Origin: Candidatus Thorarchaeota archaeon
GTDB taxonomy: Archaea > Asgardarchaeota > Thorarchaeia > Thorarchaeales > Thorarchaeaceae
Direction: 5' to 3'
Assembly (NCBI GenBank): GCA_016840855.1
Contig: JAEORO010000116.1
Coordinates: 1 to 34,124 of the forward strand
DNA: 34,124 nucleotides
A model generated the notes under the pieces. It did not search any database. It worked only from the letters and a program-made list of their open reading frames with translations, and was not told the origin of the DNA. The position numbers and the translations under genes are program-made. This document shows positions 1,640-34,124 of the stretch, one piece after another (within the stretch, counting starts at the first letter, position 1; every line of letters begins with the position of its first letter).

Positions 1640-1735
1640 GAACTTTGATGTCCCATCAGGAATAACCTTAAAGTTCACATTGTATGAGGAACAATAGACT
1701 GATGTCATTAAAAAACATCAGAGGGGCGATCACAA

Positions 1736-2260
1736 ATGCAAATACCAGAGCTTTTCGAAACAATCCTTGAGTTCATATTAAGCCCGATCTTTCTATTCGC
1801 TGTTGTTATGATTATTGTTGTGGTCGCTGTTCGTTATGGGACGAGATCTAAATCATCATCTGGTGTTCCGGTTTTGAAACAAATGCGTCGAATGGCTACT
1901 GAAATCGATAAAGGAAAAACCATCTCTGAGCCTAGTGTAAAATCTCGCCAAGACATAATTACACAGAAATTCAATTCCCAAATGAAAGCAATCGGTCTTG
2001 AACCAGCAACCGAAAGTGGTTATATTCCAGTTTCATACACACCTCTTGCTCGCTTTCTTAAGGAACGAGGCGTGCAAGATGATACTGTTAGTGCTATCCT
2101 TGCTGGTCTAATGGAGGAAGAAAACGAAACAGACGTTAGAGCTATAATAACTGCAGCTTCTGAAACGCCTGGTGTAGATCTTACCGGAGCTGAATTGGCA
2201 AAAGCTCAAGACTTAGCAGTGTCTGAATGGACAAACGTTAGAAGGTCCAGAAGTGTTTAG
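1736..2260 (+). CDS. small single-pass membrane protein with a cytoplasmic helical domain
   Basis: N-terminal hydrophobic helix (FILSPIFLFAVVMIIVVVAV) followed by basic residues. GAGGGG lies upstream. It shares a motif with the tail of the giant protein. Confidence 0.8.
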   Translation: MQIPELFETILEFILSPIFLFAVVMIIVVVAVRYGTRSKSSSGVPVLKQMRRMATEIDKGKTISEPSVKSRQDIITQKFNSQMKAIGLEPATESGYIPVSYTPLARFLKERGVQDDTVSAILAGLMEEENETDVRAIITAASETPGVDLTGAELAKAQDLAVSEWTNVRRSRSV

Positions 2261-6191: not shown

Positions 6192-6788
6192 TTACTTCAG
6201 AGCAGCAATCTGCTTATCAACGTCTTCTAGCTGTGTATCTAACTCGGACTCTTTGGTTTTATATTCATCTTCGGGAATGTATCCTCGCATGTAGTCAAAA
6301 CGCAAGTCAGTGAGTTGAGCTTTAAGTCTATCTTTTTGCTGAAGCAGGAAGTCCAACTGGTCACTACCTTCTGCTGGTGTAGCTTCTACAGATGCTACTG
6401 GCTCAGGTTCTACTGCAGGTTCTGGCTCAGGCTCTGGCTCAGGTTCAAGCGCCGGTTCAGGAGCCGCCTCAACTACTGGTTCTGGAGTTGGTGCGGTAGC
6501 TGTGGTCTTAATCTCCGGCGCAGGTGCAGGCTTAGCTGCAGAGGCCGGAGTCTCAACTTTTGGGGCATCTGTTTTGATGCTTTCCATTTTCTCCATATTC
6601 TGCCTCAGAGCTTCTATCTGATTGGCTATCTCTGTGAAGCTATCATTAATCGTTTTGTTGATAGACATCTTCATTTTCGTGAAGTTTTCAGCCAATTGGT
6701 CCGCAAGCTTTTTGGTTTCAGCCACGTTATCGGCGAAGTCTTCGATTTCCTTTAGTTTCTCCATTATAGCGTGAATATCAAAGGACAT
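6192..6788 (-). CDS. coiled-coil protein with a Pro/Glu linker and a SHOCT/CdvA-like C-terminal helical hairpin
   Basis: N-terminal heptad coil, PEPEPE linker, C-terminal LRFDYMRGYIPEDEYKTKESEL. GGTGA SD upstream. Confidence 0.75.
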   Translation of the reverse strand: MSFDIHAIMEKLKEIEDFADNVAETKKLADQLAENFTKMKMSINKTINDSFTEIANQIEALRQNMEKMESIKTDAPKVETPASAAKPAPAPEIKTTATAPTPEPVVEAAPEPALEPEPEPEPEPAVEPEPVASVEATPAEGSDQLDFLLQQKDRLKAQLTDLRFDYMRGYIPEDEYKTKESELDTQLEDVDKQIAALK

Positions 6789-6879: not shown

Positions 6880-7731
6880 TCAAGCAGCTTTTGCTTCAGC
6901 CTTACCCTCAAGAATAGCTCTTCTAATTAGCTGAATTAATCTGTCACGATATGAAATATCAATGGCTACAAGTTCATAGGTTGGAATTCCAAGAATTTGC
7001 CCAACTCTTTCTGGAGTTAAGGCAGTTGGCAGATCTTGTTTGTTTGCTATACCGAGAACCTTAGCATCAGGAACCTCGTCTTTCACAAGAGTAACTAGCT
7101 TCTTACTCCTCAATACATTCTCCAGCGTACTGTCTGTAACTATTATCACAACTTGTGCGTTAGCAATCATCTTCGCCCAGAGGATGCTAAATCGCGATTG
7201 GCCTGCCAAATCCCACAGAACTATGTTTGCATTCTCAACCTCTTCGGGTAACTTCTTGATAGACACACCTATTGTTGGATCGTGAACAAGTGGAAGTGTT
7301 TCTCCTCGAAGAAGATGCAGAGTAGTGGTTTTTCCAACACCAGCAAAACCAAGAATTGCTACTTTCACCATTGTGACCGCAATCTCATCGACTTTCTCAT
7401 CGAATCCATCCAAAGGTTGATTCGCCGCAGCTAGGTTCGCATAATCCCGCATAAATGAATCAACCAGCTGACCCATTTTTTCTTCAATTTGAGTGGCATC
7501 ATCTGCTTTGTCAGCAACAAACATGAATGTGAAATCATCCTTCTTCGCGTAGAAGATTCGTGAAATTGCAGCATTCATGAACTCTGTTTTATTTTCAAGA
7601 TCGATATTCCTCAAGAAGTGCGTGAGGTTAACTAGAAATTCAACTAAATCTGCTTTAGATTCACTCTTGGCATAATCTTTGGAATAGAGCATATTTCCCT
7701 GTTCACCAAGAACATAGACACTTCTGATCAT
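6880..7731 (-). CDS. Arf-like small GTPase with an N-terminal longin domain
   Basis: G1 GFAGVGKTT, G2 PTIG, G3 WDLAGQ, switch-II FSILW, G4 NKQDLP. The N-terminal MIRSVYVLGEQGNMLYSKDY is a typical longin/sigma-adaptin-like start. Confidence 0.88.
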   Translation of the reverse strand: MIRSVYVLGEQGNMLYSKDYAKSESKADLVEFLVNLTHFLRNIDLENKTEFMNAAISRIFYAKKDDFTFMFVADKADDATQIEEKMGQLVDSFMRDYANLAAANQPLDGFDEKVDEIAVTMVKVAILGFAGVGKTTTLHLLRGETLPLVHDPTIGVSIKKLPEEVENANIVLWDLAGQSRFSILWAKMIANAQVVIIVTDSTLENVLRSKKLVTLVKDEVPDAKVLGIANKQDLPTALTPERVGQILGIPTYELVAIDISYRDRLIQLIRRAILEGKAEAKAA

Positions 7732-8837
7732 GCTGGTTCACCACAATTTTCTATCAAGAGTTCAAGATGTCTGCGTGCAACTTGAGGTGTTATTTCTTTC
7801 TCTGATAACTTCTTTCTTATTATTGGCAGAACATATTCAGGAATGAATGATTCAATTCTTGGATTCGTGAGAAGCGCCCACACATCCTCTTCTTCGAAAT
7901 GCACAATAACTTTTTCTGATTCAAGTGTCCAGAGAACCTTTTTCACAATAGAAATAGGAAGTGCTGTCTTCAGCGATACATCGCTTGCGGAGAGTGGTTC
8001 AGCTCTTAATGAGTCGAGAACCATGTAATTTAGGCTGTCAGCAAGTAGTCGAGAAAGTTTCTCTCTATCTTCAAGAATGGGAGAGTTTGGTTCAGTTATA
8101 GGTAAGGTTGGATTATATCCCTTACCAGGTGGTGGAGGGGAGAAAAATGTAGAAACATATTCTCTGTATCTTTCTGCAATTTCCGGTATGGTATTACTAG
8201 CTTTCTTGATCGATTCTATTGGAGGTGCACGATATCCGAAGATATCCTTTACAAGAAACACCATCTCTGAAGCTTTTCCAACTAATTCTACTTTAACAAC
8301 ACCCGAATTCATTAGAGGCGTCATTGCCTCTCGCAGGTCCACTTCATCTTGAACCTGATTCTTAAGCCAAATCGAGAGTTTTGCGGCTTTCTCTACTCCT
8401 TCAGACTGCATGCGTTCAAGAATTAGTGCTGATGATGGAGTCACAAAAATGCTCGCGAGTTTCTGTTCTTCACTTGTCTTTTCTAAGATGCTTCCTGCTT
8501 TGACAATCTCCTCTAGGTTTACTAAATCGGCATCTTCATTCATTAGTGCAAGAATTAATCGTCCTGATCCTGCAAGACCATCACTTACTAAGTCGAAATC
8601 TTCATCGGCACCGAGGATTGTACAAACCATCCACTTTGGATATTCAGAGCTACCGAATATGGCTATTCTTAAGCCTTCAATCTCTGCTAAACTAAGATTA
8701 TCTCTATTCTCCTTCTGTTGCTCATAGAATATTAGATTCAGTACCTTCTCATTAAGGGTCAGTGTAGAAGGGTATCTTTGCTTAACAAGGAATCCTTGAA
8801 AGTCATCAAGATGAACCACAAATGTTGCTTCTGGCAT
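7728..8837 (-). CDS. uDENN/longin-like domain protein with C-terminal winged-helix domains
   Basis: The likely start MPEATFVVHLDDFQGFLVKQRYP resembles the uDENN/NPRL2 beta-hairpin. wHTH-like segments include LSASDVSLKTALPISIVKKVLWTLESEKVI. ATGA overlap with the GTPase gene. Alternative start at 8873. Confidence 0.65.
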   Translation of the reverse strand: MPEATFVVHLDDFQGFLVKQRYPSTLTLNEKVLNLIFYEQQKENRDNLSLAEIEGLRIAIFGSSEYPKWMVCTILGADEDFDLVSDGLAGSGRLILALMNEDADLVNLEEIVKAGSILEKTSEEQKLASIFVTPSSALILERMQSEGVEKAAKLSIWLKNQVQDEVDLREAMTPLMNSGVVKVELVGKASEMVFLVKDIFGYRAPPIESIKKASNTIPEIAERYREYVSTFFSPPPPGKGYNPTLPITEPNSPILEDREKLSRLLADSLNYMVLDSLRAEPLSASDVSLKTALPISIVKKVLWTLESEKVIVHFEEEDVWALLTNPRIESFIPEYVLPIIRKKLSEKEITPQVARRHLELLIENCGEPA

Positions 8838-8918
8838 ATGCCGTCCCACTCTAAGGAGTTGCAGTATAGACATAAATGTTTGACCCTCATGTAATGCTTT
8901 CTATGAGGTACAGAAAAA

Positions 8919-9305
8919 TCAATGAGATTCTCGGTCTTTCTCGAGATGTACAAGACATACAATGTCCCCATTTGGATTTAGAATCCAACATTTTTCACAG
9001 ACATTATGATTGCACTCAACACAAGTTCCTATTCGTTGATGAAAACTTCCGAGGTTATTCAATTCAGCACCAACACTATGTGTTTCACAATAACCAGTTC
9101 CACACTGAATACATGTGACCACCTGACTTTGCCCACAGATAGTGCATTTTTGATTTGTGTATCGTATAGCAATCTTTTTTCCATTATCAGACCCTGAACA
9201 TGATGGATTTCTACATTCCCCTACACCCTTGTATTCTCCACAGGATTGGCATACTGGAAGTAATAAAGGATCATCCCTTGTCATCTTGTTCACCTTGAAC
9301 ATCAT
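8919..9305 (-). CDS. Cys/His-rich multi-zinc-finger protein (B-box-like)
   Basis: CQSC..CRNPSC; CTIC..CIQC..CETH; CVEC..CEKC..CLVH. Confidence 0.7.
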   Translation of the reverse strand: MMFKVNKMTRDDPLLLPVCQSCGEYKGVGECRNPSCSGSDNGKKIAIRYTNQKCTICGQSQVVTCIQCGTGYCETHSVGAELNNLGSFHQRIGTCVECNHNVCEKCWILNPNGDIVCLVHLEKDRESH

Positions 9306-9396: not shown

Positions 9397-11730
9397 ATGA
9401 ACCTTGACCTCTGGAATCTCATAGTACCCTCAACAGCTACGAGGAGACTTCAGTTAGCAGGCGGTCAACCTATGGAACAATCTGTGCCAGAGGATTATGT
9501 ATTAGCAGGCATGGTTCTTCGTGCTATTGAAAAACGTGATGGCCGTGAGTTCGAATTCATTCTGAAATGTTATCTACCAGTAGTTATCGCTGAATCACCC
9601 TTCCCAAATCGGAGCTTTCTTGTTGAACTACTCGGTCTAACTAGTGAAACAATAATCAGACATAAGGAATACAACACAACAGCAATTCTTGAGAAACTCA
9701 ATTCTAGTACTGAACTAGAGGCAATCTCAAGATGTGTTAAAGATGCTCGTGATTTGGTTGCCTCTTTGAGAACATCTGAACGGTCCGAGGTAATCGGCTT
9801 AATGAGTGGTTTAATGTCTCGTGGAATTGCACAGGTGCTCGAAAGACCTCTTCGTAATCAAGTTCAGGATTATGAGGTTATTCTTTCAGGTCTTCTAAAA
9901 CAAAAAGAATTCCAAAAATCAATAGATACTCTACAAGAGACTGCCATATCATTAAGTTCTGTTGAAGAATCTCTTTCCCATCTTGTCTATATGATAATCT
10001 CAAAGATTGAAACTACCGTAGAACGAAGCGAGGTGGAGTCTGAGCCAGTTCTTTCAAGATTGAATTTGAGAATTGAGTCATTGCAACGACAAATCGAGAA
10101 TCTAGAATCTGAGATAGTCAAGATAAAAGCATCAACTTCGGATACAAAACAGACTCGACTCGCAGAAGTAAAACAGGCAATAGCAGCAAGACGAGCTGCA
10201 TTTGACAGAGATACGGCTAGACGAAATGAAACTCTTTCTGATATTCAAGGAACATCTCGCTCTTTACTTATTGAACGAGATAATTTGAGTGCTGAGTTTC
10301 AGGCTGCAAATACCACTATCCATGATCAACTCGTTTCTATCATTGATATGTCAGTACCACTATCCCCCGTCAACACTGGAGAAAAAGGCGCACTTGTTTT
10401 ACTACCATTCTTCTTTGCTGGTTTCTCTAAAAAAGGGCAGTTGCAGATTGAGGTCTATCCTATCTCTCAACTGACTACAAATGGAGAGAAAGTAAGTCGC
10501 AGGCGTGATTTTGTTGATGGTTTCACAAGCCCTTCACGAGCTGTGGATGCAATAACCTCCATACTAAGTGAAAGAGCAAATAATGATGTAGCATTAAGAA
10601 AATTCATTCGCGAATCATCTCAAAACTTCAATCTTTTAGCTGTTAAAGAATCAAGAAACCTTATTCTTGAGGGGGCTGAATCCCTAAAGGGCGATGGACT
10701 TGTGAAACAGCCGCTTGTCAATGAATTACAGGCTATTCTTTCAGGAACTCCTGAATTGAAAATTAAGCCACGCATGAAACGTCGTGTGACGCCACTAGTA
10801 ACAGAAGCGGAACTTTGTCGAATACATTTTCATATTCAAAACGAAGCTGGGCGTCCTATTGAGGGAGCTGAGCTTGAGCTAGGTGCGCTCTCTGCAAAAT
10901 CTGACAATAAAGGAGTCATTGTGGTTTCCATACCGATGAGTAACTATGAAGGAGTTGTCCGTGCTCCAGGATATTTCGATAAATCAGTGGAATTTGCACT
11001 TACCTCAAAGAGCGATGCTGCAATTCCAATAATGCTTAATTCACTCTCACACGAAGACCAGCTCTCAGCACGATTGGATGAGCTTGTTGATAGATCGCGT
11101 CGTCTTGATATGATTCGAGATCGATTATGGAGTGCCTTCGAAACTCAAGGAAGTACCTTGTTGAGTATTCCTGCGTATCGATCTGCACTCTTTGAGCTTC
11201 TTGCTGAATTAGGATACGAACCCGAATCATGGATTGCTGAAGCGAAGAAGCAAAAAGGAATGGTGAAACGACTTCTTAAGAGAGATAATAGAACCGATGG
11301 ACTTCGCCGTGATATTTTAAAAATGGCTGAGGAATCTAAAACGTTTGGAGGAATCATGCTTTTCTCAGAACTCCTTGTTCGATTAGATACTGCTGGCTGG
11401 GCGACTCATGCTGACGAGATTGAGCGCATCATTGAAGATATGACAAAGGAGGGCTTAATTCAAGGTCTCTCATCTATCGAGGGAGGTGCGCTTCTAGTCG
11501 AGTTTGTTCCTGTCGCATTAACTCATGATCCACAAGAGATACTTAGCCTTGCTGCAACTCATGATGGACGTCTTAGTATAGAAGATGTTGTTGTAGGACT
11601 TGGTTGGACTGAAGAACGAGTAAGAAATGCTCTTGAGCTTCTTGTTAAGAATGGTGTAGCTAAGGAACAACGAAGTTATTCAAAAAGCACACAATATTGG
11701 TTCCCTGGACTGAGAGGGGGAAAGAAATAA
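9397..11730 (+). CDS. coiled-coil + Ig/carboxypeptidase-regulatory-like domain + ESCRT-II Vps22/36 (EAP30) winged-helix fusion protein
   Basis: The C-terminal ~220 aa mirror Vps22/Snf8 (LGYEP, FGGIMLFSEL, VEFVPVALTHD, LGWTEERVRNALELLVKNG, QYWFPGL). GRPIEGAEL..SDNKG..VRAPGY is a beta-sandwich signature. A long heptad region spans about aa 170-310. Confidence 0.82.
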   Translation: MNLDLWNLIVPSTATRRLQLAGGQPMEQSVPEDYVLAGMVLRAIEKRDGREFEFILKCYLPVVIAESPFPNRSFLVELLGLTSETIIRHKEYNTTAILEKLNSSTELEAISRCVKDARDLVASLRTSERSEVIGLMSGLMSRGIAQVLERPLRNQVQDYEVILSGLLKQKEFQKSIDTLQETAISLSSVEESLSHLVYMIISKIETTVERSEVESEPVLSRLNLRIESLQRQIENLESEIVKIKASTSDTKQTRLAEVKQAIAARRAAFDRDTARRNETLSDIQGTSRSLLIERDNLSAEFQAANTTIHDQLVSIIDMSVPLSPVNTGEKGALVLLPFFFAGFSKKGQLQIEVYPISQLTTNGEKVSRRRDFVDGFTSPSRAVDAITSILSERANNDVALRKFIRESSQNFNLLAVKESRNLILEGAESLKGDGLVKQPLVNELQAILSGTPELKIKPRMKRRVTPLVTEAELCRIHFHIQNEAGRPIEGAELELGALSAKSDNKGVIVVSIPMSNYEGVVRAPGYFDKSVEFALTSKSDAAIPIMLNSLSHEDQLSARLDELVDRSRRLDMIRDRLWSAFETQGSTLLSIPAYRSALFELLAELGYEPESWIAEAKKQKGMVKRLLKRDNRTDGLRRDILKMAEESKTFGGIMLFSELLVRLDTAGWATHADEIERIIEDMTKEGLIQGLSSIEGGALLVEFVPVALTHDPQEILSLAATHDGRLSIEDVVVGLGWTEERVRNALELLVKNGVAKEQRSYSKSTQYWFPGLRGGKK

Positions 11731-21283: not shown

Positions 21284-24200
21284 TCAGTCTTCTATTCCAA
21301 GACTCTTGATGAGTTCATCAACTAGCTCACGTGGTAAACGACTAGCTTGCTCAATAATCATATCGATTTCATGCAGGGGTACTCCTTTTTTGAGCAGATC
21401 TGCTTTGAGTTCCTGAAGCTCGAACTGAGAGAGTTTCTCGCCTAGTTGTTTTTCTTCAACCTCTGGTGTTTCGATTGTAACTTCTGGTTCCTTAGCCTCT
21501 TCCTCTACCAAGAATATCCGATCCTCAGGTGCTTCTTTTTCAGCTTCTGAAATCTCTTCAACTTCTTCTGGAGCAGAAACCCTTCTAGATGCTTCAATAG
21601 CTACTTCTTCAAGAATCTCTTCGACAGTCTTTCCTCTTGAACGAGCAGCACGGATTGCCTCTTGCATGATAACTTCTTTCACGAAGGCAGCTTGCTCACT
21701 CATCTTCATCTTAGATATATCAGCGTTGAATTCATCCAACTCCTCAGGACTCAAATTAGTCAATATCGATAGTTGGATGAGGAGTTCTCTGATCTCAGGA
21801 ATTTCAATTGGTACTGAAGCCTCTGGCATGTCAGTTGACACTCTTGTGATCGCGAGCTTCTGGAATGTATCATTAAATAGGTCAGCAACTAGTTGTTGTC
21901 TAGTCTTGCTATCTGTAATTGGCTTTGGAATCTTTCCTTTTTGAAGTGCTTTGATTTGACTATTTATTTGTCTCAACCGTTTTGGAATGCTGAAGTATCT
22001 TGTCCAAAGAACCCCAATCAAAAACACTAGGAACAATAGAGGAGTTGCATAAGATATCACTGTTCCCATTGTTTTTTGTTCCTCAGTAGGTATTATTGTT
22101 ACGCTTAGCTCAAGTTCTTTCTGTTCATAATTGTCAAGGCTAAGAGTTATTGTTAGGTCAACATACTGGGTATCGATACCAACAGGAACGAGTGGAGCAT
22201 CGACTCGAATGGTGAGAACATATACGCCGGGGTCTGTTGTTGATCTGTTGGATACAATCTGAACAAGGGCTCTTTCACTTGTCACTGTGAACTTCGCGTT
22301 CGTAATACCTTCACCCGGGACATTCAGCCAGCTCTCATAGTAATAGACATAGACATCAATTGTTTCTCCGTAGTACATTGATATCGTACCATCAATGATA
22401 TTATCCGAACTGAATTCGAGCACAGTTGGACGTTCGATGACTGTGATTGTAATCGGAATGTCGCTATGTGACTGTCTATTTCGCAGATCTACACTTATCC
22501 TTATGAAGAATGGACTATTGGGTAGAGCTCGAGGTACACCAGGTTGCAACTCAAATAGCTCATCTGCAGTTGAATCAAATACAAAATAGTATGTTCCATT
22601 TCCGAAGTCCATGGCATCAAAAGTGATACTTGATACTATTCCTCCGCCATATACTATCACAGTGACTGCTGCTTCCACAAGACCTCCAACATATCCATCT
22701 GAGTCATCTGTATCGTTATAGAAGAAACTAATTAAAATTGCATCACCAAATGGTATTTCCAAATCGTCTGTATGATTGTCTATTTGGTTGTCAGTTGGTG
22801 TGGATAGGGTCAACTCAGTCGGTACTTCTTCAATAATGAGAGAAATAGAGCCAGTACTGACCTGATAGTTTAGCTTATCAAAATCGATAGTGACTGGATA
22901 TCTGATACCTGTTTCCAAGTATGTTGTGTTGATTAGGATTGAATAATACCCATTCCCAAGGTCAATTGCATCACCACTAAAGGGTCCCCATTGGTATTGT
23001 GCTGTTGCATTGTTTATTCCTTTATCAAAATCGATGTCGTGATAATAGAATGTGAGGTTCCCAATCCAGCCCCAGTAAATCACACTTGGAATTGGACTTA
23101 CTACTTCTGTCTTGATTTTTCGTATTGTAATGGCAAGATCAACATAATCCTCTGCCAAGTTACTATCATCAGGTATGCCATGGAATGTCACTCCCCAAGT
23201 TCCAAAAGCCATTTTTGATGTATTAAAAGTGAGTTCCCATAGACCTGATATTGGATTGAAGGTAAAGGTTTCATTGATTTCAAATGCGGAATCAATCCAT
23301 TCAATTGTGGCATTATTAATAGTCAATCCAGATTCACTTTCAGTGAAATTCAGGTAGAATGTAGTCATGTTATTGTAGACTGCATCCATTCTAGTCATCG
23401 TGGGGGTTACAAGATAAATCGTTGTGGAAGTTGCTTGAAGATCCATTTTGAAGACTGCGCTAGCTGGATCATAATTGGTAGCTGATGCTATTACCCTAGC
23501 TGAGTAGATTATGCCTGGTTGCAAAGTAGCAGTTGCATCTGGCAGCAGGGTTGTGTACCATGTGTAATCAGTTGAGTTTTGAATAAGATCATATCTCTTA
23601 CCTAGAAACATCAAATAGACCTCCGATATTCCAGACTCAATCATGATTCCACCATTATACTCATCAGTCAGGTAGACAACAACATCAATAGGATCACCTC
23701 TTGGATGTTCAAATGCTAATTCTGGAGAGTCGATTACTAATTCACTCGGCAAAGAAAGAACAATGAGAGTGAAAGTTGTGGCCGCAATCTTGTATTTGTC
23801 TTTCTCAGCACGCACTTGAACAACTCGAGTACCTGAATCCTGAAGCGAAGTGTCGATGTATGCTTCATATGTTCCAGCTGGGATAATTTCAGAGAAATTA
23901 CCAGAAAATGGACCATAGGTCCAAGTTACAATAGCTCCCGATGTACTATTGAGGTTGAGAAGATCTCTGTAATCAACAACGATGCGTACTTGTTCGGTCC
24001 AATTAAGTGCTATTTCGGATTCTCCTATTGGTACTAAACTGGTTGAGATTCTCTCAACGGTGAATGATGGATTAACAGACATTGTTGTATAGGGGTAATA
24101 ATCGATGGTAATATTCAAGGAGTGACTACCAAATTCATTGAGATCCCCAGTACTGAACTCTATTGAATAAACACCCAACCCTAGATATTGGATAGTCATA

Positions 24201-27200
24201 GGACTGGGAACTATACTTGTTCCGTAGTAGTGGACTTCAAACACACTAATTGGTAGGTTGACTCCCTGGTCATGGTCAAGATCTGTTAGTGTCACTTCCA
24301 CTGTAACGTTACCAGTAATCTGGACTGACGAAGGCGTCGGCACTCCCGCTTGCATATTTGACCATATGAGGTCGACTCCACCGTTTAATTTAATGGGTGA
24401 CCTATTCTTGTAGTATGGCGCATTAGCTTGATTCCACTGCACCTCGAGTTCGAACACGAAGTTACCAATATCACTTGGTCCAAAAACAAGTGCATTGGTA
24501 TCAATTGATATGGTGTATTTGCCTGGTAGACTCTCAATGAGTGTATACTCGCTTCCTTCACTCAATATCCTTACTGGATTCACACAACGAAATATGATGA
24601 TGGCACCAGAAACTGGATTATCGTTATCTTCATCAGTCAAGAAGAAGGTGATATTCATTCGGTCTTTAACTGGCGTTGTTTCAATCTGTTGCGGTTCGAC
24701 AAGGATTATTCGCTGTGTTGTGGATACTTTCATAGAAGTTCCATCATCTGTGTAGAAGGGGGATGTAGTAACAGGCCAATTTACAAAGACTGTGATGTTG
24801 AAATCTTTGACCAATTTAGTAGATAGAACTGTTGAGTTAATTGACACAATAAATATTGAACCAACTGGTGTCAAGACATACTGATTTGAAGCCAGAAGTG
24901 TTCCATTTGAATAGATTAAGACATAGTTCGATGCGATGCCTGAGATCTGAAGTCCACTAATTGCATCAACATAAGCAAAAGTGAAGGTCATATTGTCTAG
25001 ATATCTTGGTTGATTTGCAGGCTCTAATATGTCAACGGACGCAGTCCTTTCTATTGATTTCACTGACACGAGCCTTTGTGCATTATTATGATACGGAGCT
25101 CCTCCAGGCCAGACTGCAGTCACATTAATACTATGGGTACCCAGTGAACCAAGAGCTGACGAATCAATGTAGATTGTATAAACTCCTGGCTCATCTTCGA
25201 CAACGAAGAAATTAACATCCAAAGTTAGCACTCCCGAATTGAGAATGAAGTCCGCACCTGATATCCCAGCTGTGACATCAGCATCCCAATAATAGACCAC
25301 GAAGCTTGCATTTTCACCAAATGGTGCTGGTATTGCAGCTTCTTGAAGATCAAGAGCTGAAGTTCTTGTCCTTATAGTGAAATGAACATAGACATCATCC
25401 CACCTATAGAACGGGTCCACATATGCATAGCTCATATTGAGCCAGAGGGCATGATCTCCCAAGGTAAGAGTTGTCTGTCCGATAGTTGTGATGACAACCA
25501 GATAATCACTGGTCGCTGGTCGCCATGTGATAGTGTAAACCCATGGAGTTCCCGTGTCATTCAGAATACTGAATGATGTAAAGGTATCATCGATATTAGC
25601 CAGCGTCAATATGTCTTGGTATGCCAGTGTGATGTCAATCTGAGTTTCATAACCAACTTGGCCTACTGGATTTGCTGAGAGAATTGTTGTTCTAAATCTC
25701 ACATTGAGTGTCCGAACTGCTGAAGCATCATTCCTGAAGTATCCACCAGTATATACTATACTTACATTGAGGTTGTAAAATCCTGGCACTGAGAAATATC
25801 CTGTGTCGAGTGAAATCTCGAAGTTGCCAAGACCGTCTGGTGTAAGAGTATAATATGCTCCTGGAATCTGGACTCCAAGATAGTAGATTGAGAGAGTGGC
25901 ATCAGGAATGCCCACCTCTGTGACACCACTAATGTCTATGTATGAAACATCGAAGGTAACAAAATCACCATATGGTGTTGGAGCTGGAGCATCGAAATTG
26001 ACTTGTGTCTGTCTCATTGTGATAGTGAAGTAGACAAGCTGAAGCGTTTTGTTCGCATAATATGGCGATCCTGCCCACGTCACATTGATGTAAAATATGG
26101 CAAGCCCAACATCACCAAACTGTGCTGTATTGAAAGACATTGTGAAGATATGGGATGCTACATCATAACTCAAAGACGGGCTTTCAGTGAGGTTGGTTAA
26201 AATCGACATCTCACTTGAAAAGACTACGAGGACCTCCGGTAGTGTCGTTGAGTCAACAAAGGAGAATGTGAAGGTTGCATTTTCACCATAAGGAGTATTC
26301 AAAGGTCTATCTACTGAAACATATGTGCTCCTCGCAATTGTAGTAGCTTTCGTTGATGATGAGTCATCTTTATAGTAATTTGGACTATCTGGCCAATCAA
26401 TTTGAACAGAAATGATTCTGTTCTTGACTAGTCCATCGCTCAAGACAGTAGAACTAATACTAATCTCATATGTATAGCCTGCACCAATTTGAGTCATCGA
26501 AAATTCAGAAGGATTAAGCATGATTAGGTCATTATAGATTGTCACCAAGTCTTTCGTCGCTTGGAGTTCTTGTCCAGTTTCAATATCAATGAAAGAAACC
26601 GTAAAAGACACATTTTCCAAGTAGGGTGTCTGAACTGGAGGTGTGATTACCTCGACATTGGTCGGTCTTCGGGTGACTGAAAGGTCGATATCAATATCCG
26701 CATCATCATGGAATGGAGCTCCTCCTATCCATTCGACTTGAACTGTAACAGTAGTTACACCAATTCCATCTAGCGCTGTTGTTTGTACAATTACTTCAAA
26801 GACTCCTCCACCAACATGAGAGTAGAAATAATCTGTTCCATAGACCAAAGGTGTAACGCCTTTAAGAATGAATATATTGGCACTTGTAATTGGTGACAGG
26901 TCATCTGCATCACTATAATACACTGTGAAGGAAACATTGTTCAAATATGGTGTTGGAACCGGAGCTTCCTGTCGCTCTAATGACGATGCGCGGCTTCTGA
27001 TTTCGAACGTAATATACGCATCATCAAATTTGTAGAAAGGCGTTGAAAAGGCATAGCTCATATTGATGTGGAGGGAATAGACTGAACCTATAGCAAGTGA
27101 GAGCTGGTTTGAAGTTTCTACTGTCAATTCGTAGTATCCCATTGAAGGGTTCCAATCAATAACATAGATCCAGCTGGAACCATTCAGGATCTCGAATGCT

Positions 27201-30200
27201 ACAAGCGATGAATCCTTTCCAATAATATCTAGAGTAGTGTTATCCTGATAGTATAGGATGGTAGTAATTGGTGAGGAATATGGTACAGAGGTGACCGGCT
27301 CAGACGATGTTATTGTTGACCTGTACCTGATTGTGAATGAACGGGTGTCTACTCTGCTCACATAGTAGAATTGTGTTGAAGTTATATTGACAATAATATT
27401 GTATGTTCCAGGATTTGTTTTGTAAGTGGTATTGAGCACAACATTGTATGCTCCTGAACCAATCTCATAGACTGTATAATAGACAGATGGGAGTAGTGAT
27501 GCTCCATCGTATAGTGTGATAGTAGCCCCTTCTATCCCTGCTGCTGTTTCTGCGACATCGGTCCAAGTGACACTGAATGTGACATTGTCAAGATACTGTG
27601 TGGGAGATGGTGTCTGATAATCCAAGACTGTCTGACGTGCTATGACTCTTACTGAAATAGCACGACCTGTTTGATTTGCATAGAAGGGAGTTCCTTCCCA
27701 TCTAACATCCAAGGTGAAACCTTGTGTTCCAAGTGCGCCAAATTGGGAAGTATCAAATGAAACAGTGAAGGTCTTGGTAGGATCATAATATGTGATGGAG
27801 TAGTCACTCAGACTGATAGTAATAGTAAGTTTGGCATCATTTGCAATCGGTACATTGAGCGCCCCTGTCACATCATCAAAAGTAAATGAAAATGTGGCAT
27901 TCACACCATATGCAGTCTGAATTGGAGGACTAATTGAAACCAAGGTGTCACGTGGGAGTATCCTAACTGAGATTGTGTCTGTTCTATTGCTATAGAATGG
28001 TTCCACTCCCTTAGCCCAGTTGATATAGACCTTCATGTAGATTAATCCAGTCTTTCCAAACAAGTCCGTGTTGAATCTGATAGAGTATTTTCCACGGTCT
28101 GTAACTGGGTTGACTTCCCAAATCTCGACCTGGTTGAGATCTACGGTTTCTCCTACGAATTCAACAAAAATATACACATGACCTGTTATGTTGGCTATTC
28201 CCGTACCATTAACAGCTGAGTAGAACAAAGTGTATGTCATGTTCTCGAGGTATGGTGTTGGCTCTGCGGTCACAACAAGTGTAAGTCTAGAATCTTCACC
28301 GAGGATGTTGGCTGCTGCGAACAGGTAGCTATCCTTGTACGTACTAACTGGTCCCGTCCAGTTGAAATAAATCGTGAAGTTCTGAAGTCCTAATCCGCCA
28401 AACTGCTGTGCTGGAACAATTATTGTGTAATATCCTGGTTGCCCAGTGACATTGAATAGGTAGGATATGACATTGACTGTCCCATTCCATACTCTGTGGC
28501 TAACATATTGAGACGCAATTCCTTCACCACTATCAATGTCGCCAAAGAATAGCGATATACTGATGTTGCTAGTGTAACTAACTGGTTCAATGGCACTGAC
28601 CAATCTAAAATCTGTATTATGAGTTCTAATTGTGATGGAGATGTTGAATAGACCAAATTGATAGTTTTCACCTTTACTAAAGTTGAATGAAACAACAAAG
28701 TTCTGACGAAGTTCATCATCATCAAATGTGATGAAAGTTACTCGATATCTCTCCTGAGCTGGTATGTATGTGATTGTCACTGAATGAATCCAAGTTGATG
28801 CAGCTAAGAATGGTGCTTCATCTGTTACTGGTAAATCATGATCGATGTCCCAGTACTCAACGTAAAATACAGGATCATCGCCAACTGGAATGTCCAAAGC
28901 GCCAACAGAAGGTATAGCGTAGGTGAAGGCTATACGAATCACCACTTTGAAGGAAATTGTCTGAGGTTCATACCCTACCTGATCTGCGGTAAGTTGGTAC
29001 AGATGTTCACCTTTTGCTAGACCACTTACATCAACCGTGACCTGATAGACGCCACTTCCAAGGTTTTGTTGATTATAGATTGTTATTCCTATTGCAGTGA
29101 TAATTGCGCCTTCTATACCTTGGTTTCTATCAATATCTAAGAAGGTCAAGGTAACGTCAAAATCGGTGTTGTATGGTGTCACTGCAGCTCTATCTGGCGA
29201 TGACAGTTCACTCCTTGCAGGTCTGTACTCGAAGATGAGAATCATGTGCGACTCCGCATATCGATTGTCAGCTGGAGTGACAGTAATGAAGATCGTATAG
29301 TCTCCTTCAGGGAAGTAGGAAGCATCGATTGTGATGTTATATCGTCCATTCGTCAGATCATGGAATTCTTTGATAGGAATAATGTGAGTAGTGTTCGCGA
29401 TTGAGAATTCTCCTTGAAGCAAACCTGTGATTGGATCTCCATATAGACTGCCTTGCTCACTTACATTCACTGTCACAATAACTTGGAAGTCATCTCCTGT
29501 CGGATACCGATAGTCTCCTGGTTCATTGATTATGTGAGTGGTTACTGACCTAATTGTAATTGTGAATACATAGTCTACTGGATCTTCATAGTTGCCTGTC
29601 ATTACTAGGGATAGTGTCACTGATACATCCTCAACTAACCAAGTACTCGTACCCAAACTATATAGCAAATCTGAAGGACTAGATTCCCCTTCAGAACCGT
29701 AGCTTGAGCTGAAGCTGAAGCTAGAAACATCAGTTGCACTAAGCGTAATTCCAGAATCTAGGTCAGTTATCACAATTGTGAGTTGTGTAAGGTTACCATA
29801 TGGTGTTTCCAAATTCCCTTTGATTGTGACAGAAGTATAGTGGTTTCTAATTTCAATATCAAAGACATAGTTAGAGGGATTATAGAAGTTTCCAGTCATC
29901 ACCACCGAGAGGGTGACTGTTTCAGTTCCAACCGCCCAAGTGCTTGTATCCAACACCACAATCAAATCTGTAGGGTTGGTTTCTTGAGTGTCCCCATAAC
30001 TTGCTGGATTGAGGATGAACCCAGACACATCGGATGCAGTCAGAGTATCTCCTGTATCGCTATCTCTAATTACTATCGTAAGAGTGGTCATCTCTCCATA
30101 TGGCGTAATCAAGTCACCAATCACTGTGACTGACGTGTAGTGATTACGAATCTGGATGTTGAACTGGTAGTTGTCAGGATTATTATAGTTCCCATTCATC

Positions 30201-33200
30201 ACCACCGAGAGGGTAACTGTTTCGGTTCCTACAGCCCACGCGCTTGTATCCAAGTCAACGATGAGGTCTGTTGGGCTCGACTCAGGATGGTCTGAGTAGC
30301 TTGCTGGATTAAGGAGGAAACTTGACACATCAGACGCGGAAAGAGAATCGCCAGTGTCTGTGTCGCGAATGATAATAGTTAGTTGCGTAGATTGACCATA
30401 GGGTGTGATGAAGTCACCGACCACAGTGACAGATGTATAGTGATTCCTAATTTGGATATCAAATTGGTAGTTGGTAGGATTGTTGTAGTTCCCACTCATC
30501 ACCACTGAGAGGGTGACTGTTTCTGTAGCAACGCTCCATAAACTAGTATCAAGTATGAAATCAAGATCACTTGGACTTGGATCGCTCTGCGAGCCATAGG
30601 TACTTGGTGTGAAAGTGAAACTTGAAACCGATGTGGATGTTAATGTCAATCCTGTATCCAAGTCAGTAATAACAAGAGTAAGAGGTGTTGATTGACCATA
30701 GGGTGTGATTAAGTCACCAATCACAGTGACTGACGTGTAGTGATTGCGAATCTGGATGTCAAACTGGTAGTTGACTGGATTATTGTAATTTCCACTCATT
30801 ACCACTGAGAGGGTAACTGTTTCAGTTCCTACAGCCCACGCGCTTGTATCCAAGTCAACGATGAGGTCTGTTGGGCTCGACTCAGGATGGTCTGAGTAGC
30901 TTGCTGGATTAAGGAGGAAACTCGACACATCAGATGCACTGAGCATAGTATCTGTATCTGTGTCAACAATTACTATTGTTAGAAACGTAGTAGTTCCATA
31001 GGGACTAATTAAATCTCCAATTACAGTGACAGATGTATAGTGGTTTCTAATTTGAATGTCAAACAGGTAGTTTAGTGGATTATGGTAAATTCCACTCATC
31101 GAAACCGAAAGTGTCACAGGTTCTGTCCCAACATCCCATCCACCAGTTGTAAGTGATACAGCAAAATCAGTTGGATTTGTTTCACTTATTGGGGAGTAGC
31201 TTGAAGTAAAGCTCCATGAATTAACATTGCTTGTAGTTGCTAATGCTAGTCCTGTGTCTGTGTCAACTATGATGACAGTCACAGGAGTTGGGTCACCATA
31301 TGGTGTAACTAGGTCGCTGACGACTGAAACTGATGTAAAGTGTTTTCGAAGTGTGAAAGTTATCGTGACAGTACTCTCTTCTAAATAGGAGCCTGCTTTA
31401 GTAGCTTTGAAAACAAATACATGATCTCCATAGCTTAGTCCTCCAGTGTTCAACGAGATATTATATCGTCCTGCTCCTTCTGCAACGACATTTACAAGGG
31501 TACCATTCTCAAATGCGATGGTTGCACCTGTTATTGGTACTCCATTATAGCTATCTTCGAAGATCAATGTCGCCGTAAAGTCAAAACCTACTGGTGTGGT
31601 ATCTACATCGGTGAAATCAAGTTCTGTTGTATGATACAATTCCAAGTCGAAGTAATCTGTTGCATTATTGTAGTATTGATGATATGAGTTGATGTTGATT
31701 CTATACTTTCCAGCAACATCTAAATCAGAAGTGTTGACTGATTTTCCATACCTGCCATTTCCTATATCGTTGAGAGTTAATTCAGTTGGCGTACCAGATA
31801 CTGACCAATTCATCTTGACAACAGCGCCTGCTATCTTGTTTGAATTTGCATCATCAGTCAGTTCCATCTCAATGTACAGGATCTCTCCAGCTACACCATA
31901 AGCTGTCTTGTCACCTACAGCATCTGCTGGATTGATAATTGTGAGCGAACTATCATGTTTTACTATGAAGTTTCTTTCAAAGAGTCCTGTCCCGTAAGAA
32001 ACTGTGCTTCCGGTGTCATTATAGTATACGGATGCTGTCCAAAGTCCTGCGGGAGCGGTAGAATCAATTATCTTTGATAATGTATGTTGAGGTGAAGTTC
32101 TTGACTCCTCTGTTCCTCTACCAATAAATGCGCCAATGTTAGCAACATTATCATACTCGACAGCGTACCATCCTACAGCTCTTGGGGTAGTAGCAATCCT
32201 CAACTCATCAACTCTACCAGTATGGAATGCCTGCGCAGTTGGAAATTCAGAGGTGTCAACATACCCACCACCAATTCCCCAGTTTCCATTAAAAGCCATA
32301 TTTATTGATGCCGCGCCTCCTGAAGAACCTGCATCAGTATTATCTGCGCCATTGATGTATATCTTGTTGTTTGATGGTGTATCTGCATCCATCACACAGG
32401 CGAAGTGATACCAACCAGCCGCCCAACTTACTCGAGTTGTCCATTTCACCCATTCTTGACCATTGATTTCAAATCCAAAAACTAGACCTCCTGCTGAAGT
32501 AAAACCCGTTTCAGTATAGTCTGACCCTGTTAACGCAATGTGGAAGTTGTAATCTCCATCAAGATATTTTGCTGCAAGTACTCTTGAGGGTGATGATGTA
32601 GCACTCCAAGTGCTAGCAATATAGAACCAACCAGAGATTGTGACATCACCTGTTGGATTAAGATTTTGAGTAGAATTGATTTCTATCCAATCATTTCCAT
32701 CAAAATTCTGACCATATCCATTTACAATGCCAGTTGTTCGGGAGTTACCAAACTGGTTTCCGATATATCCGTTAGATGTTGAGTCGAAGTGAAGCCCACT
32801 TGAACCTTCATCTGTCACATCCTCATTAAGCAGCCAGACTGCCTCATACCCATCTGACCAGAGTGTTTCTGGAGATTCAGTTGACCCAATAACCGGGTTT
32901 CCATAATATAGCAAAAGTGTATTGTCGACAGAGCTAGAAAGATTTGCTTGGACCCATGCTACTAATCTACCTGTGCTTTGATCGAATCGATCAATCTCAT
33001 GTGCCAAAACTTTACCATTTTGAACAAAGACAAAGTCATCCCCGTCAGCTTGTACCTTTGTTTGAAAATCAGTATCTGCAAAACTAACCAATAATGGGAA
33101 GTTTGAAACAGTATAATCAACTTGCGCTGCAGGTATTGTGAGTTGCATGCGATAGGCAAATGATGGAATGTCCCATGTTGTTCCAGGAACTCCTGTTGTT

Positions 33201-34123: not shown

Positions 34124-34124
34124 A

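Follow-up and report, generated by a model that had tools for sequence, protein, structure and literature searches.

The DNA analyzed here, called the window below, is an entire contig of 34,124 bases (C53) from a genome of a Candidatus Thorarchaeota archaeon; the genome comprises 3.36 Mb in 259 contigs and is 92% complete with 6.3% contamination. The plus strand of the window encodes a small protein of 174 amino acids (aa), and the minus strand encodes a giant single-pass surface protein. An earlier reading of the DNA made without database searches (the sequence-only reading) had proposed that both proteins contain the same juxtamembrane (JM) module directly after their membrane helix, and that the small protein is a receptor-like protein without an ectodomain. 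The analysis indicated that the first 46-50 cytoplasmic residues of the small protein are homologous to the helix-loop-helix JM of the giant proteins. The two genes and their parts are:

1736-2260, plus strand: gene of the small protein (174 aa), from an unnamed family restricted to one Thorarchaeota family (f1)
1784-1840, plus strand: membrane helix of the small protein, residues 17-35, a helix in the AlphaFold2 (AF2) model with a predicted local distance difference test score (pLDDT) of ~90
1865-2005, plus strand: JM module of the small protein, residues 44-90, helix/KGK loop/helix, from hhalign and AF2
2018-2257, plus strand: C-terminal domain of the small protein, residues 95-174, four helices in a compact fold, peculiar to this family, from AF2
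21284-34124, minus strand: giant single-pass surface protein gene, 5' end cut by the contig end
22001-22060, minus strand: membrane anchor helix of the giant, tail-reference residues 14-33, part of a continuous AF2 helix 6-53, with the invariant P20
21848-21988, minus strand: JM module of the giant, tail-reference residues 38-84, homologous to the JM of the small protein
21572-21817, minus strand: helical middle domain of the tail, residues ~95-176, with four AF2 helices in 103-175 at pLDDT 86-95
21287-21571, minus strand: acidic disordered linker (177-219) and terminal three-helix unit (220-271) of the tail, from AF2

The tail reference is the stretch of 271 aa encoded by window positions 21287-22099 on the minus strand. 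Searches within the source genome covered 9,050 six-frame open reading frames (ORFs) with 1.50 million residues. The proteins encoded here have relatives labelled Thorarchaeota. The comparison set consisted of 400 Asgard genomes, and family f1 comprised 85 genomes besides the source genome. The alignment of the small protein contained 121 relatives; that of the tails contained 103 sequences, 6 from the source genome and 97 further ones, and in all 97 the match reaches to 13 residues or fewer from the C-terminus.

Both segments quoted in the sequence-only reading are present where it had placed them, the segment of the giant being tail-reference residues 38-84. A BLASTP comparison of the small protein with the giant tail gave E 0.002 and an identity of 27% across 71 columns, some of which belong to the membrane helix. 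This low identity, together with phmmer searches of the 9,050 ORFs with single sequences, which were non-significant in both directions (E 0.11 and 2.7), would fit a resemblance by chance or composition, in which two basic stretches merely happen to follow a membrane helix each. The profile comparisons argue against this view. A hidden Markov model (HMM) of the six tails from the source genome ranked the small protein first among the remaining ORFs with E 2.4e-5, the next ORF being at 0.18. When the 121 small-protein relatives were aligned with the 103 tails by hhalign, the match had a Prob of 96.2% (E 2.3e-9); without the membrane helix it still had a Prob of 95.2% (E 2.6e-8, 78 columns), against E values of 0.32 and 0.2 in reversed controls, and the JM alone reached 97.4% (E 9.3e-12, 46 columns). 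The profile of the small protein by itself also finds the transmembrane helix plus JM (TM+JM) in long ORFs from 11 genomes of other Asgard families, which is an independent pick-up across families. The common segment had been described by a pattern beginning with P..L[KR]Q. Without its Pro, this regular expression matches exactly these two of the 9,050 ORFs, but as originally written it fits the giant only; the Pro stands one residue closer in the small protein. The similarity is thus beyond chance, and we consider the chance reading extremely improbable and close to refuted. HMM searches and hhalign together establish that a conserved JM module is common to the giants and to a protein without an ectodomain.

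Significant similarity is confined to this part of the two chains. The alignment without the membrane helix continues past the JM (IPVSYTPLARFL with IPIEVPEIxELL, and AILAGLMEEE with SILTNLSPEE). Taken alone, this extension, which pairs the C-terminal domain of the small protein with the middle domain of the tail (VPEIxELLxQL...KMKxSE...FVKEV), is non-significant (Prob 2.4%, 13 columns), and an HMM of the small-protein C-terminal domain found no giant in the genome at E≤5. The small protein hence shares with the giant-tail family the conserved outer Pro, the membrane helix and the JM, and not the middle domain. A second, weaker match that had been claimed, LARFLKERGV... with LKADLLKKGV..., is not supported: compared with the terminal unit of the tail (LSxxELxxLxxxLxxxGVPxxEIxxII), the small protein has a Prob of 21% (E 1e-3, 21 columns), and in searches of the genome the HMM of each domain missed the other protein (E≤1 with that of the terminal unit, E≤5 with that of the small-protein domain).

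The small protein is encoded by a real conserved gene, which is almost always single-copy. A full-length match to its profile occurs in 78 of the 85 other f1 genomes, and the profile search of the 400 Asgard genomes found no full-length match outside f1. Exactly one match is present in 75 of 79 genomes, the source genome included. The order small gene, gene of an AlaX-type editing protein and nucleotidyltransferase/hexapeptide gene, directly one after another and all on the same strand, is kept in 12 of 12 loci (11 other genera), and a gene for an M20 peptidase lies upstream of the small gene in 11 of these. The ratio of nonsynonymous to synonymous substitution rates (dN/dS) is 0.06-0.18 for 10 distinct pairs among five same-genus orthologues of equal length; pairs with a sixth orthologue were saturated. 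A decayed piece of a giant gene was also considered as the origin of the small gene, and this is ruled out by conservation, synteny and dN/dS. The 127 relatives of the small protein are all unnamed and all without Pfam domains.

The AF2 model of the small protein, computed from 121 sequences, has a mean pLDDT of 77.5. An N-terminal helix (3-14) precedes the membrane helix, near whose outer end Pro17 is kept in at least 90% of the 121 small proteins; the matching position in the giants is the invariant P20. The two helices of the JM (45-58 and 71-85) are modelled with lower confidence, R71 being near-invariant, and the four-helix C-terminal domain spans residues 103-173 at pLDDT 86-93. Because an acidic flank precedes and a basic flank follows the membrane helix, the positive-inside rule predicts that the tail side is cytoplasmic in both the small protein and the giant. 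The small protein of the window would therefore be a single-pass protein with its N-terminus outside and its C-terminus inside, exposing ~16 residues outside the cell.

No part of the two proteins could be assigned to a known fold or family. Neither the small protein nor the giant tail has a family in Pfam or NCBIfam, where only stray matches below threshold appeared (DnaB_2 at 0.3, DnaD at 0.21 and MHJ_0274 at 0.0011, the last with 18.7 bits versus a cut-off of 80). Foldseek found no match in the PDB at E≤1e-3 for either model (E≥0.8 for the C-terminal domain of the small protein), sequence profiles found nothing in the PDB below E 0.03, and the ESM Atlas gave no usable match for the small protein or the tail. 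For the C-terminal domain, VIA wide gave a best Z of 6.6, which is within the stated background for helical models, and an HMM search of the source genome found no paralogue of this domain.

The giant ORF occupies positions 21284-34009 of the minus strand. Its frame remains open to the contig end, over 4,279 aa, which bears out the earlier estimate of more than 4000 aa; the N-terminus is missing because the ORF runs off the contig. No Pfam family was found in the giant (4,241 aa) at E≤0.01. Internal repeats of ~100 residues are evident in the sequence (...IQIRNHYTSVTVIGDLITPYG...) despite the absence of a Pfam match. Six giant ORFs of the source genome, on contigs C53, C248, C195, C2, C181 and C176, share the tail with E values from 1e-24 to 1e-164. 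The tail model (mean pLDDT 80) contains a helix of residues 6-53 that runs from the membrane into the JM, a KGKIPKP loop and a helix of residues 67-78. Across 52 tails the residues P39, K40, R43, G55, P58, R67 and N76 of the JM are invariant. In this giant 187 residues follow the JM. The middle domain occurs in Thorarchaeota-type tails and partly in family f14; residues 178-219 have a pLDDT below 50, and the three-helix unit, modelled at 225-266, is repeated four times in the paralogue on C195.

The fact that the profiles of both proteins extend beyond f1 shows how widely the module is spread. Outside f1 the small-protein and tail profiles match the membrane helix plus JM only, near the C-terminus of frames of 385-2,310 aa. 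Loki-type proteins stop ~70 residues past the helix, so the JM is essentially the whole tail there. When 22 TM+JM segments from six Asgard families were aligned, P-x-x-(I/V)-R-(K/Q)-(I/M), KGK-x-P-x-P and R-(Q/E)-x-(I/L) were conserved, with one Arg being invariant. The profile of this alignment matched 463 of 1,835,955,588 representative proteins at E≤1e-3 (197 at E≤1e-10), mostly at the C-terminal anchor of large surface proteins. The median tail past the JM has 134 residues, and usually 20-750 more residues follow. Organism labels were available for 5 of 10 proteins looked up, and all are Asgard (Helarchaeota, Lokiarchaeota/Promethearchaeota and Hodarchaeota). Among 128 newly listed matches, 18 have the module at the start of the protein, 4 of these belonging to the small-protein family, and 9 have two modules ~500-900 residues apart. 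These two-module proteins (P0220-P0224, P0236, P0274, P0332 and P0340) are of Loki-, Hel- and related types; in P0222 and P0223 a third helix lies between the modules, so that the chain passes the membrane three times and both JMs face the cytoplasm.

In the comparison set the module is present in 289 of 400 genomes. It is near-universal in f1 (83/85), f22 (131/135), f21 (13/14) and f14 (18/19), and near-absent in f8 (1/31), f10 (0/12), f11 (0/22) and f13 (1/12). The range of the module, with six giants in the source genome and most Asgard lineages, is wider than the sequence-only reading had seen. These alignments show the JM to be the conserved core of Asgard surface-protein tails.

The small-protein family also contains members without a membrane helix. 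The orthologues in L032 (G313), L043 (G329) and L038 (G383), which represent three genera, have no membrane helix and retain the JM. Their frames open a few residues ahead of the JM with a short hydrophobic stub of the FFG/LFG type, and no hydrophobic segment is found upstream in any frame. Judged from match coordinates and frame lengths, ~16 of 79 small proteins are without the helix. The conserved core of the family is therefore the JM plus the C-terminal domain. The name 'mini-receptor' that had been given to the small protein is too narrow for a family in which orthologues of at least three genera do without a membrane helix. The JM of the small protein is under selection even where its own chain is outside the membrane, and it is predicted to act in the cytoplasm independently of membrane insertion of that chain. 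In the G324 orthologue the helix reads ILYGLPIPVV, which contains the giants' own consensus YGLPI.

A candidate partner of the JM emerged from the genes that adjoin JM-tailed genes in other Asgard, among them Loki- and Odin-type genomes. The window contains a member of the same protein family, called the adaptor family here, next to a small GTPase gene:

7728-8873, minus strand: paralogue of the adaptor family, 381 aa, identified with the adaptor HMM (alignment A6)
6880-7731, minus strand: Arf-family small GTPase gene, 283 aa, Pfam Arf E 1.6e-19

Of 8 loci from outside Thorarchaeota, 4 have an adaptor ORF of 366-382 aa that starts less than 100 nt from the stop codon of a JM-tailed gene. In exhaustive searches of five genomes, a full-length adaptor match was present on the same strand at most 350 nt downstream of 10 of the 34 JM matches (4/9, 3/8, 1/2, 2/10 and 0/5 per genome); conversely, 10 of the 22 full-length adaptor matches in these genomes come directly after a JM gene. 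The adaptor profile was found in 311 of 400 genomes, and its pattern among the families parallels that of the JM: for JM and adaptor, respectively, the counts are 131/135 and 135/135 in f22, 1/31 and 1/31 in f8, and 0/12 and 0/12 in f10. Even the exceptions agree, since G039 is the sole positive genome of f8 and G084 that of f13 for both, and G007 is the sole negative of f6 for both. In f24, f25, f11 (1/22) and most of f16 the adaptor is present and the JM absent; the JM without the adaptor was not seen.

An HMM of four adaptors matches the window ORF 7728-8873 with E 7.7e-37 over model positions 6-364, the next unrelated match being at 0.007, and the alignment of six adaptor sequences has 23 invariant columns. 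No Pfam family was found in the window adaptor. The source genome has three adaptor homologues: the window ORF and those on C21 and C103, which are near-identical (E ~1e-67). The latter two copies (C21 38916-40067 and C103 547-1683) have the same neighbouring ORF of 215 aa on different contigs, and they probably reflect strain heterogeneity or redundancy of the bin. Both stand alone. The window adaptor, which lies upstream of the GTPase gene, is separated from the giant by 12 kb and from the small gene by 5.5 kb. Its stop and the start of the Arf-like GTPase gene share 4 nt, an overlap suggestive of translational coupling. The GTPase gene is found at the end of 5 of the 12 syntenic loci that reach far enough. 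The Arf-like GTPase has an N-terminal extension of 120 residues. The sequence-only reading had linked the module to GTPase, ESCRT (endosomal sorting complex required for transport) or cytoskeletal machinery. The GTPase part of this proposal has gained circumstantial evidence from the adaptors that follow JM genes, the phyletic pattern and the 4-nt overlap, but no link to ESCRT or the cytoskeleton was found.

Some further features of the region touch on the expression and the surroundings of these genes. One of them is a short element ahead of the small gene:

1664-1675, plus strand: 12-mer AACCTTAAAGTT, promoter-like or regulatory, ~60 nt 5' of the ATG of the small gene

The 12-mer was looked for 5' of the orthologues in 13 loci from 12 genera; it is exact in 9, has one mismatch in 1 and two mismatches in 1, and is absent from 2. 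The window has one copy versus 0.19 expected, and the 3.36-Mb genome has two exact copies, the second of which lies inside a gene. The element is too specific for a general promoter consensus and may thus be the site of a dedicated regulator. Downstream of the 12-mer, and still ahead of the start codon, an inverted repeat of 7 bp (CTGATGT ... ACATCAG, 1701-1726, plus strand) with a 12-nt A-rich spacer could form a hairpin in the 5' leader. A contig from an RNA library is identical to the window over 1637-1837, and the library run also covers a 31-nt piece near 6416; because carry-over of DNA is possible, this is a weak hint only, and with a single library run the uncovered remainder of the region carries no meaning. 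A distance of 20-52 kb separates the small gene from the tail end of a giant gene in at least 17 genomes, the source and 16 others of f1. The orientation of the giant relative to the small gene varies among these same-contig pairs, and the arrangement looks like conserved synteny on a large scale and not like an operon.

Elsewhere in the window, a 777-aa protein (9397-11730, plus strand) has a sub-threshold C-terminal match to EAP30/Vps36 of ESCRT-II (E 1.6e-4, 21.9 bits versus a cut-off of 26.8), and a 128-aa protein (8919-9305, minus strand) has a faint B-box-like match. In the Loki-type loci G264:C19 21248-26581 and G238:C14 9449-14861, four tandem JM-tailed genes (~550-1,160 aa) stand beside an adaptor paralogue in divergent orientation.

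The explanation that we favor, with a confidence that falls a little short of even, is that the JM is a cytoplasmic docking module, that its likeliest ligand is the adaptor family of ~375 aa, and that the small protein presents the module without an ectodomain. The JM would be a docking element on the cytoplasmic side, recognized most likely by the adaptors that are co-encoded with JM-tailed surface proteins elsewhere in Asgard. The small protein might then offer the docking site in a form that is membrane-bound in the source organism but soluble in some genera, and its own four-helix domain could be the output. For whatever the tails of the giants recruit, it could be a constitutive tether, a competitor or a regulator. 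The 'receptor plus adaptor/decoy pair' of the sequence-only reading is in this sense a reasonable but unproven hypothesis.

Several observations weigh against this explanation. The best-conserved part of the small protein is its own C-terminal domain and not the JM. In Thorarchaeota no adaptor gene adjoins a giant or a small gene, and in family f14 none of 5 JM genes adjoins an adaptor. In f16 the adaptor is present in 6 of 6 genomes and the JM in 1 of 6 at the threshold used. Because related genomes are non-independent, the co-occurrence of JM and adaptor is weaker than the counts suggest, and a misplaced contig would carry adjoining JM and adaptor genes together; the co-occurrence is suggestive, not statistical. 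Fused forms of the adaptor were not found among proteins of 658-2000 aa, a search that is weak evidence, and the adaptor itself has only sub-threshold hints of a winged helix (WH_Rok at E 1e-3 in 2 of 6 members, RPC6 at E 0.03). Binding of the JM to the adaptor, and of the small protein to the giant, is hypothetical. Prediction of a complex between residues 1-180 of the giant tail and the whole small protein gave 0.00 twice, without controls, and is uninformative either way. Finally, the JM, being strongly basic and amphipathic, might do no more than rest on the membrane.

This last possibility leads to a different explanation, in which the JM is a topogenic, lipid-binding basic amphipathic hairpin on the inner leaflet that locks very large ectodomains in the membrane or helps to insert them, and the small protein shares it by descent only and has an unrelated role through its own C-terminal domain. 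The extreme basic charge directly after the helix (e.g. KIRKLRKKIRKGKK in Loki-type proteins) speaks for such a function, and the JM is always right at the membrane in surface proteins; also the two-module proteins have both JMs on the cytoplasmic side of a helix. However, the positions kept across Asgard classes include non-basic ones (Pro, Gly, Pro-x-Pro, Arg-Gln/Glu and Phe-Asn), which is beyond the needs of charge. The retention of the JM in helix-less small proteins and the tight adjacency and co-occurrence with one family of soluble proteins also argue against it, and we regard this explanation as unlikely.

The other alternative is suggested by the likeness of the JM to the HAMP domain (PF00672). 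The JM would be a HAMP-like self-pairing hairpin, two of which form a four-helix bundle, and there would be no separate adaptor ligand; the small protein would be a truncated, regulatory or spacer subunit in assemblies with the giants or with further copies of itself. Like HAMP, the JM has ~50 residues directly after the membrane helix that form helix, connector and helix, with a connector of 11-14 residues in the AF2 models. Its two amphipathic helices have hydrophobic residues at heptad-like spacing; a Pro opens helix 1, a Gly the connector and a polar residue helix 2, which contains residues resembling FN-x-M (FN-x-(M/F)) near its end. One weak hhalign match of the giant JM to Thorarchaeota HAMP is co-linear (Prob 10%, 45 columns). 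Yet at E≤1 the Pfam HAMP model (25-bit cut-off) recognizes the JM of neither protein, and in profile-profile comparisons the probability was only 1-28%: with Thorarchaeota HAMP, hhalign gave 1.3-1.5% for the small-protein JM, 9-10% for the tail JM, 28% for TM+JM of the tail and 2.4% for alignment A5. The single HAMP detected in a six-frame scan of the genome belongs to a 492-aa protein on C110. Across 61 genomes of the family the model matched 28 times, always in frames of 304-613 aa and never in a giant or a small protein. The connector of the JM differs in being strongly basic, Pfam and NCBIfam detect no signalling output domain after the JM, such as a kinase, methyl-accepting chemotaxis protein (MCP) or cyclase domain, and the JM exists also in orthologues without a membrane helix. 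A HAMP-like role is in our judgement improbable.

If the JM is a docking module, as we favor, it has analogs in layout in eukaryotes. Eukaryotic single-pass adhesion receptors carry membrane-proximal docking motifs, e.g. in integrin beta tails and in basic juxtamembrane regions that bind FERM proteins. The JM-tailed proteins resemble them in having a large modular ectodomain, one membrane helix, a short membrane-proximal segment common to paralogues and a soluble adaptor that is genetically tied to the tails in Asgard. They differ in that the carriers are archaeal and the partner is a candidate only, and the likeness is one of layout alone. The sequence-only reading had also considered a sorting function. 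In PGF-CTERM/archaeosortase and LPXTG/sortase signals, the motif stands ahead of the helix and few basic residues follow at the very end. The JM has in common with these signals that a conserved element marks the C-terminal anchor of many unrelated surface proteins per genome. It lies after the helix, however, comprises 46-50 folded residues with further residues beyond them, and has no NCBIfam match.

NPRL2-like and FLCN-like longin proteins of Asgard have been described (10.1101/2020.10.19.343400; Traffic 2025, PMC12290439), the former in most Thor metagenome-assembled genomes according to the accessible text of the first of these reports (10.1101/2020.10.19.343400). As far as the available text of the two goes, neither connects these proteins to the tails of surface proteins (10.1101/2020.10.19.343400, PMC12290439). 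Longin proteins as regulators of GTPases would fit a coupling of adaptor and Arf in the window; their identity with the adaptor family of alignment A6 is not established. A search of the full-text literature, with subscription papers and bioRxiv supplements outside its scope, turned up no account of the motif, of the small-protein family or of a link from surface tails to the adaptor, and 'Asgard archaea' together with 'juxtamembrane' gave 0 papers; the asCOG tables in the preprint of Liu et al. may contain these families.

A more far-reaching proposal, which we consider doubtful, is that in most Asgard archaea the JM hairpin of surface proteins recruits a putative longin/winged-helix adaptor and, through it, Arf-like GTPases, and that the small JM protein of Thorarchaeota tunes or mimics this recruitment. 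In that case the large surface proteins are probably the 'complex surface proteins' seen in Lokiarchaeum by cryo-tomography, where the accessible part of the report describes many such proteins on a single membrane and no ordered surface layer (S-layer) (PMC9834061). For the other cultured strain, the available text of a glycoproteome study reports that no S-layer candidates were detected (PMC11284389).

The small protein is the easiest construct for binding and structural work, because in it the motif is isolated from an ectodomain of 4,000 residues and, in some genera, also from the membrane. Longin proteins and small GTPases of eukaryotic type are numerous in Asgard archaea. The JM is a conserved cytoplasmic motif common to hundreds of surface proteins and genetically tied to one adaptor family, and it provides a peptide-sized handle for asking whether such eukaryote-like parts connect to the cell surface. 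If the proposed recruitment is true, it would constitute a prokaryotic outside-in link from surface adhesion to eukaryote-like GTPase regulators.

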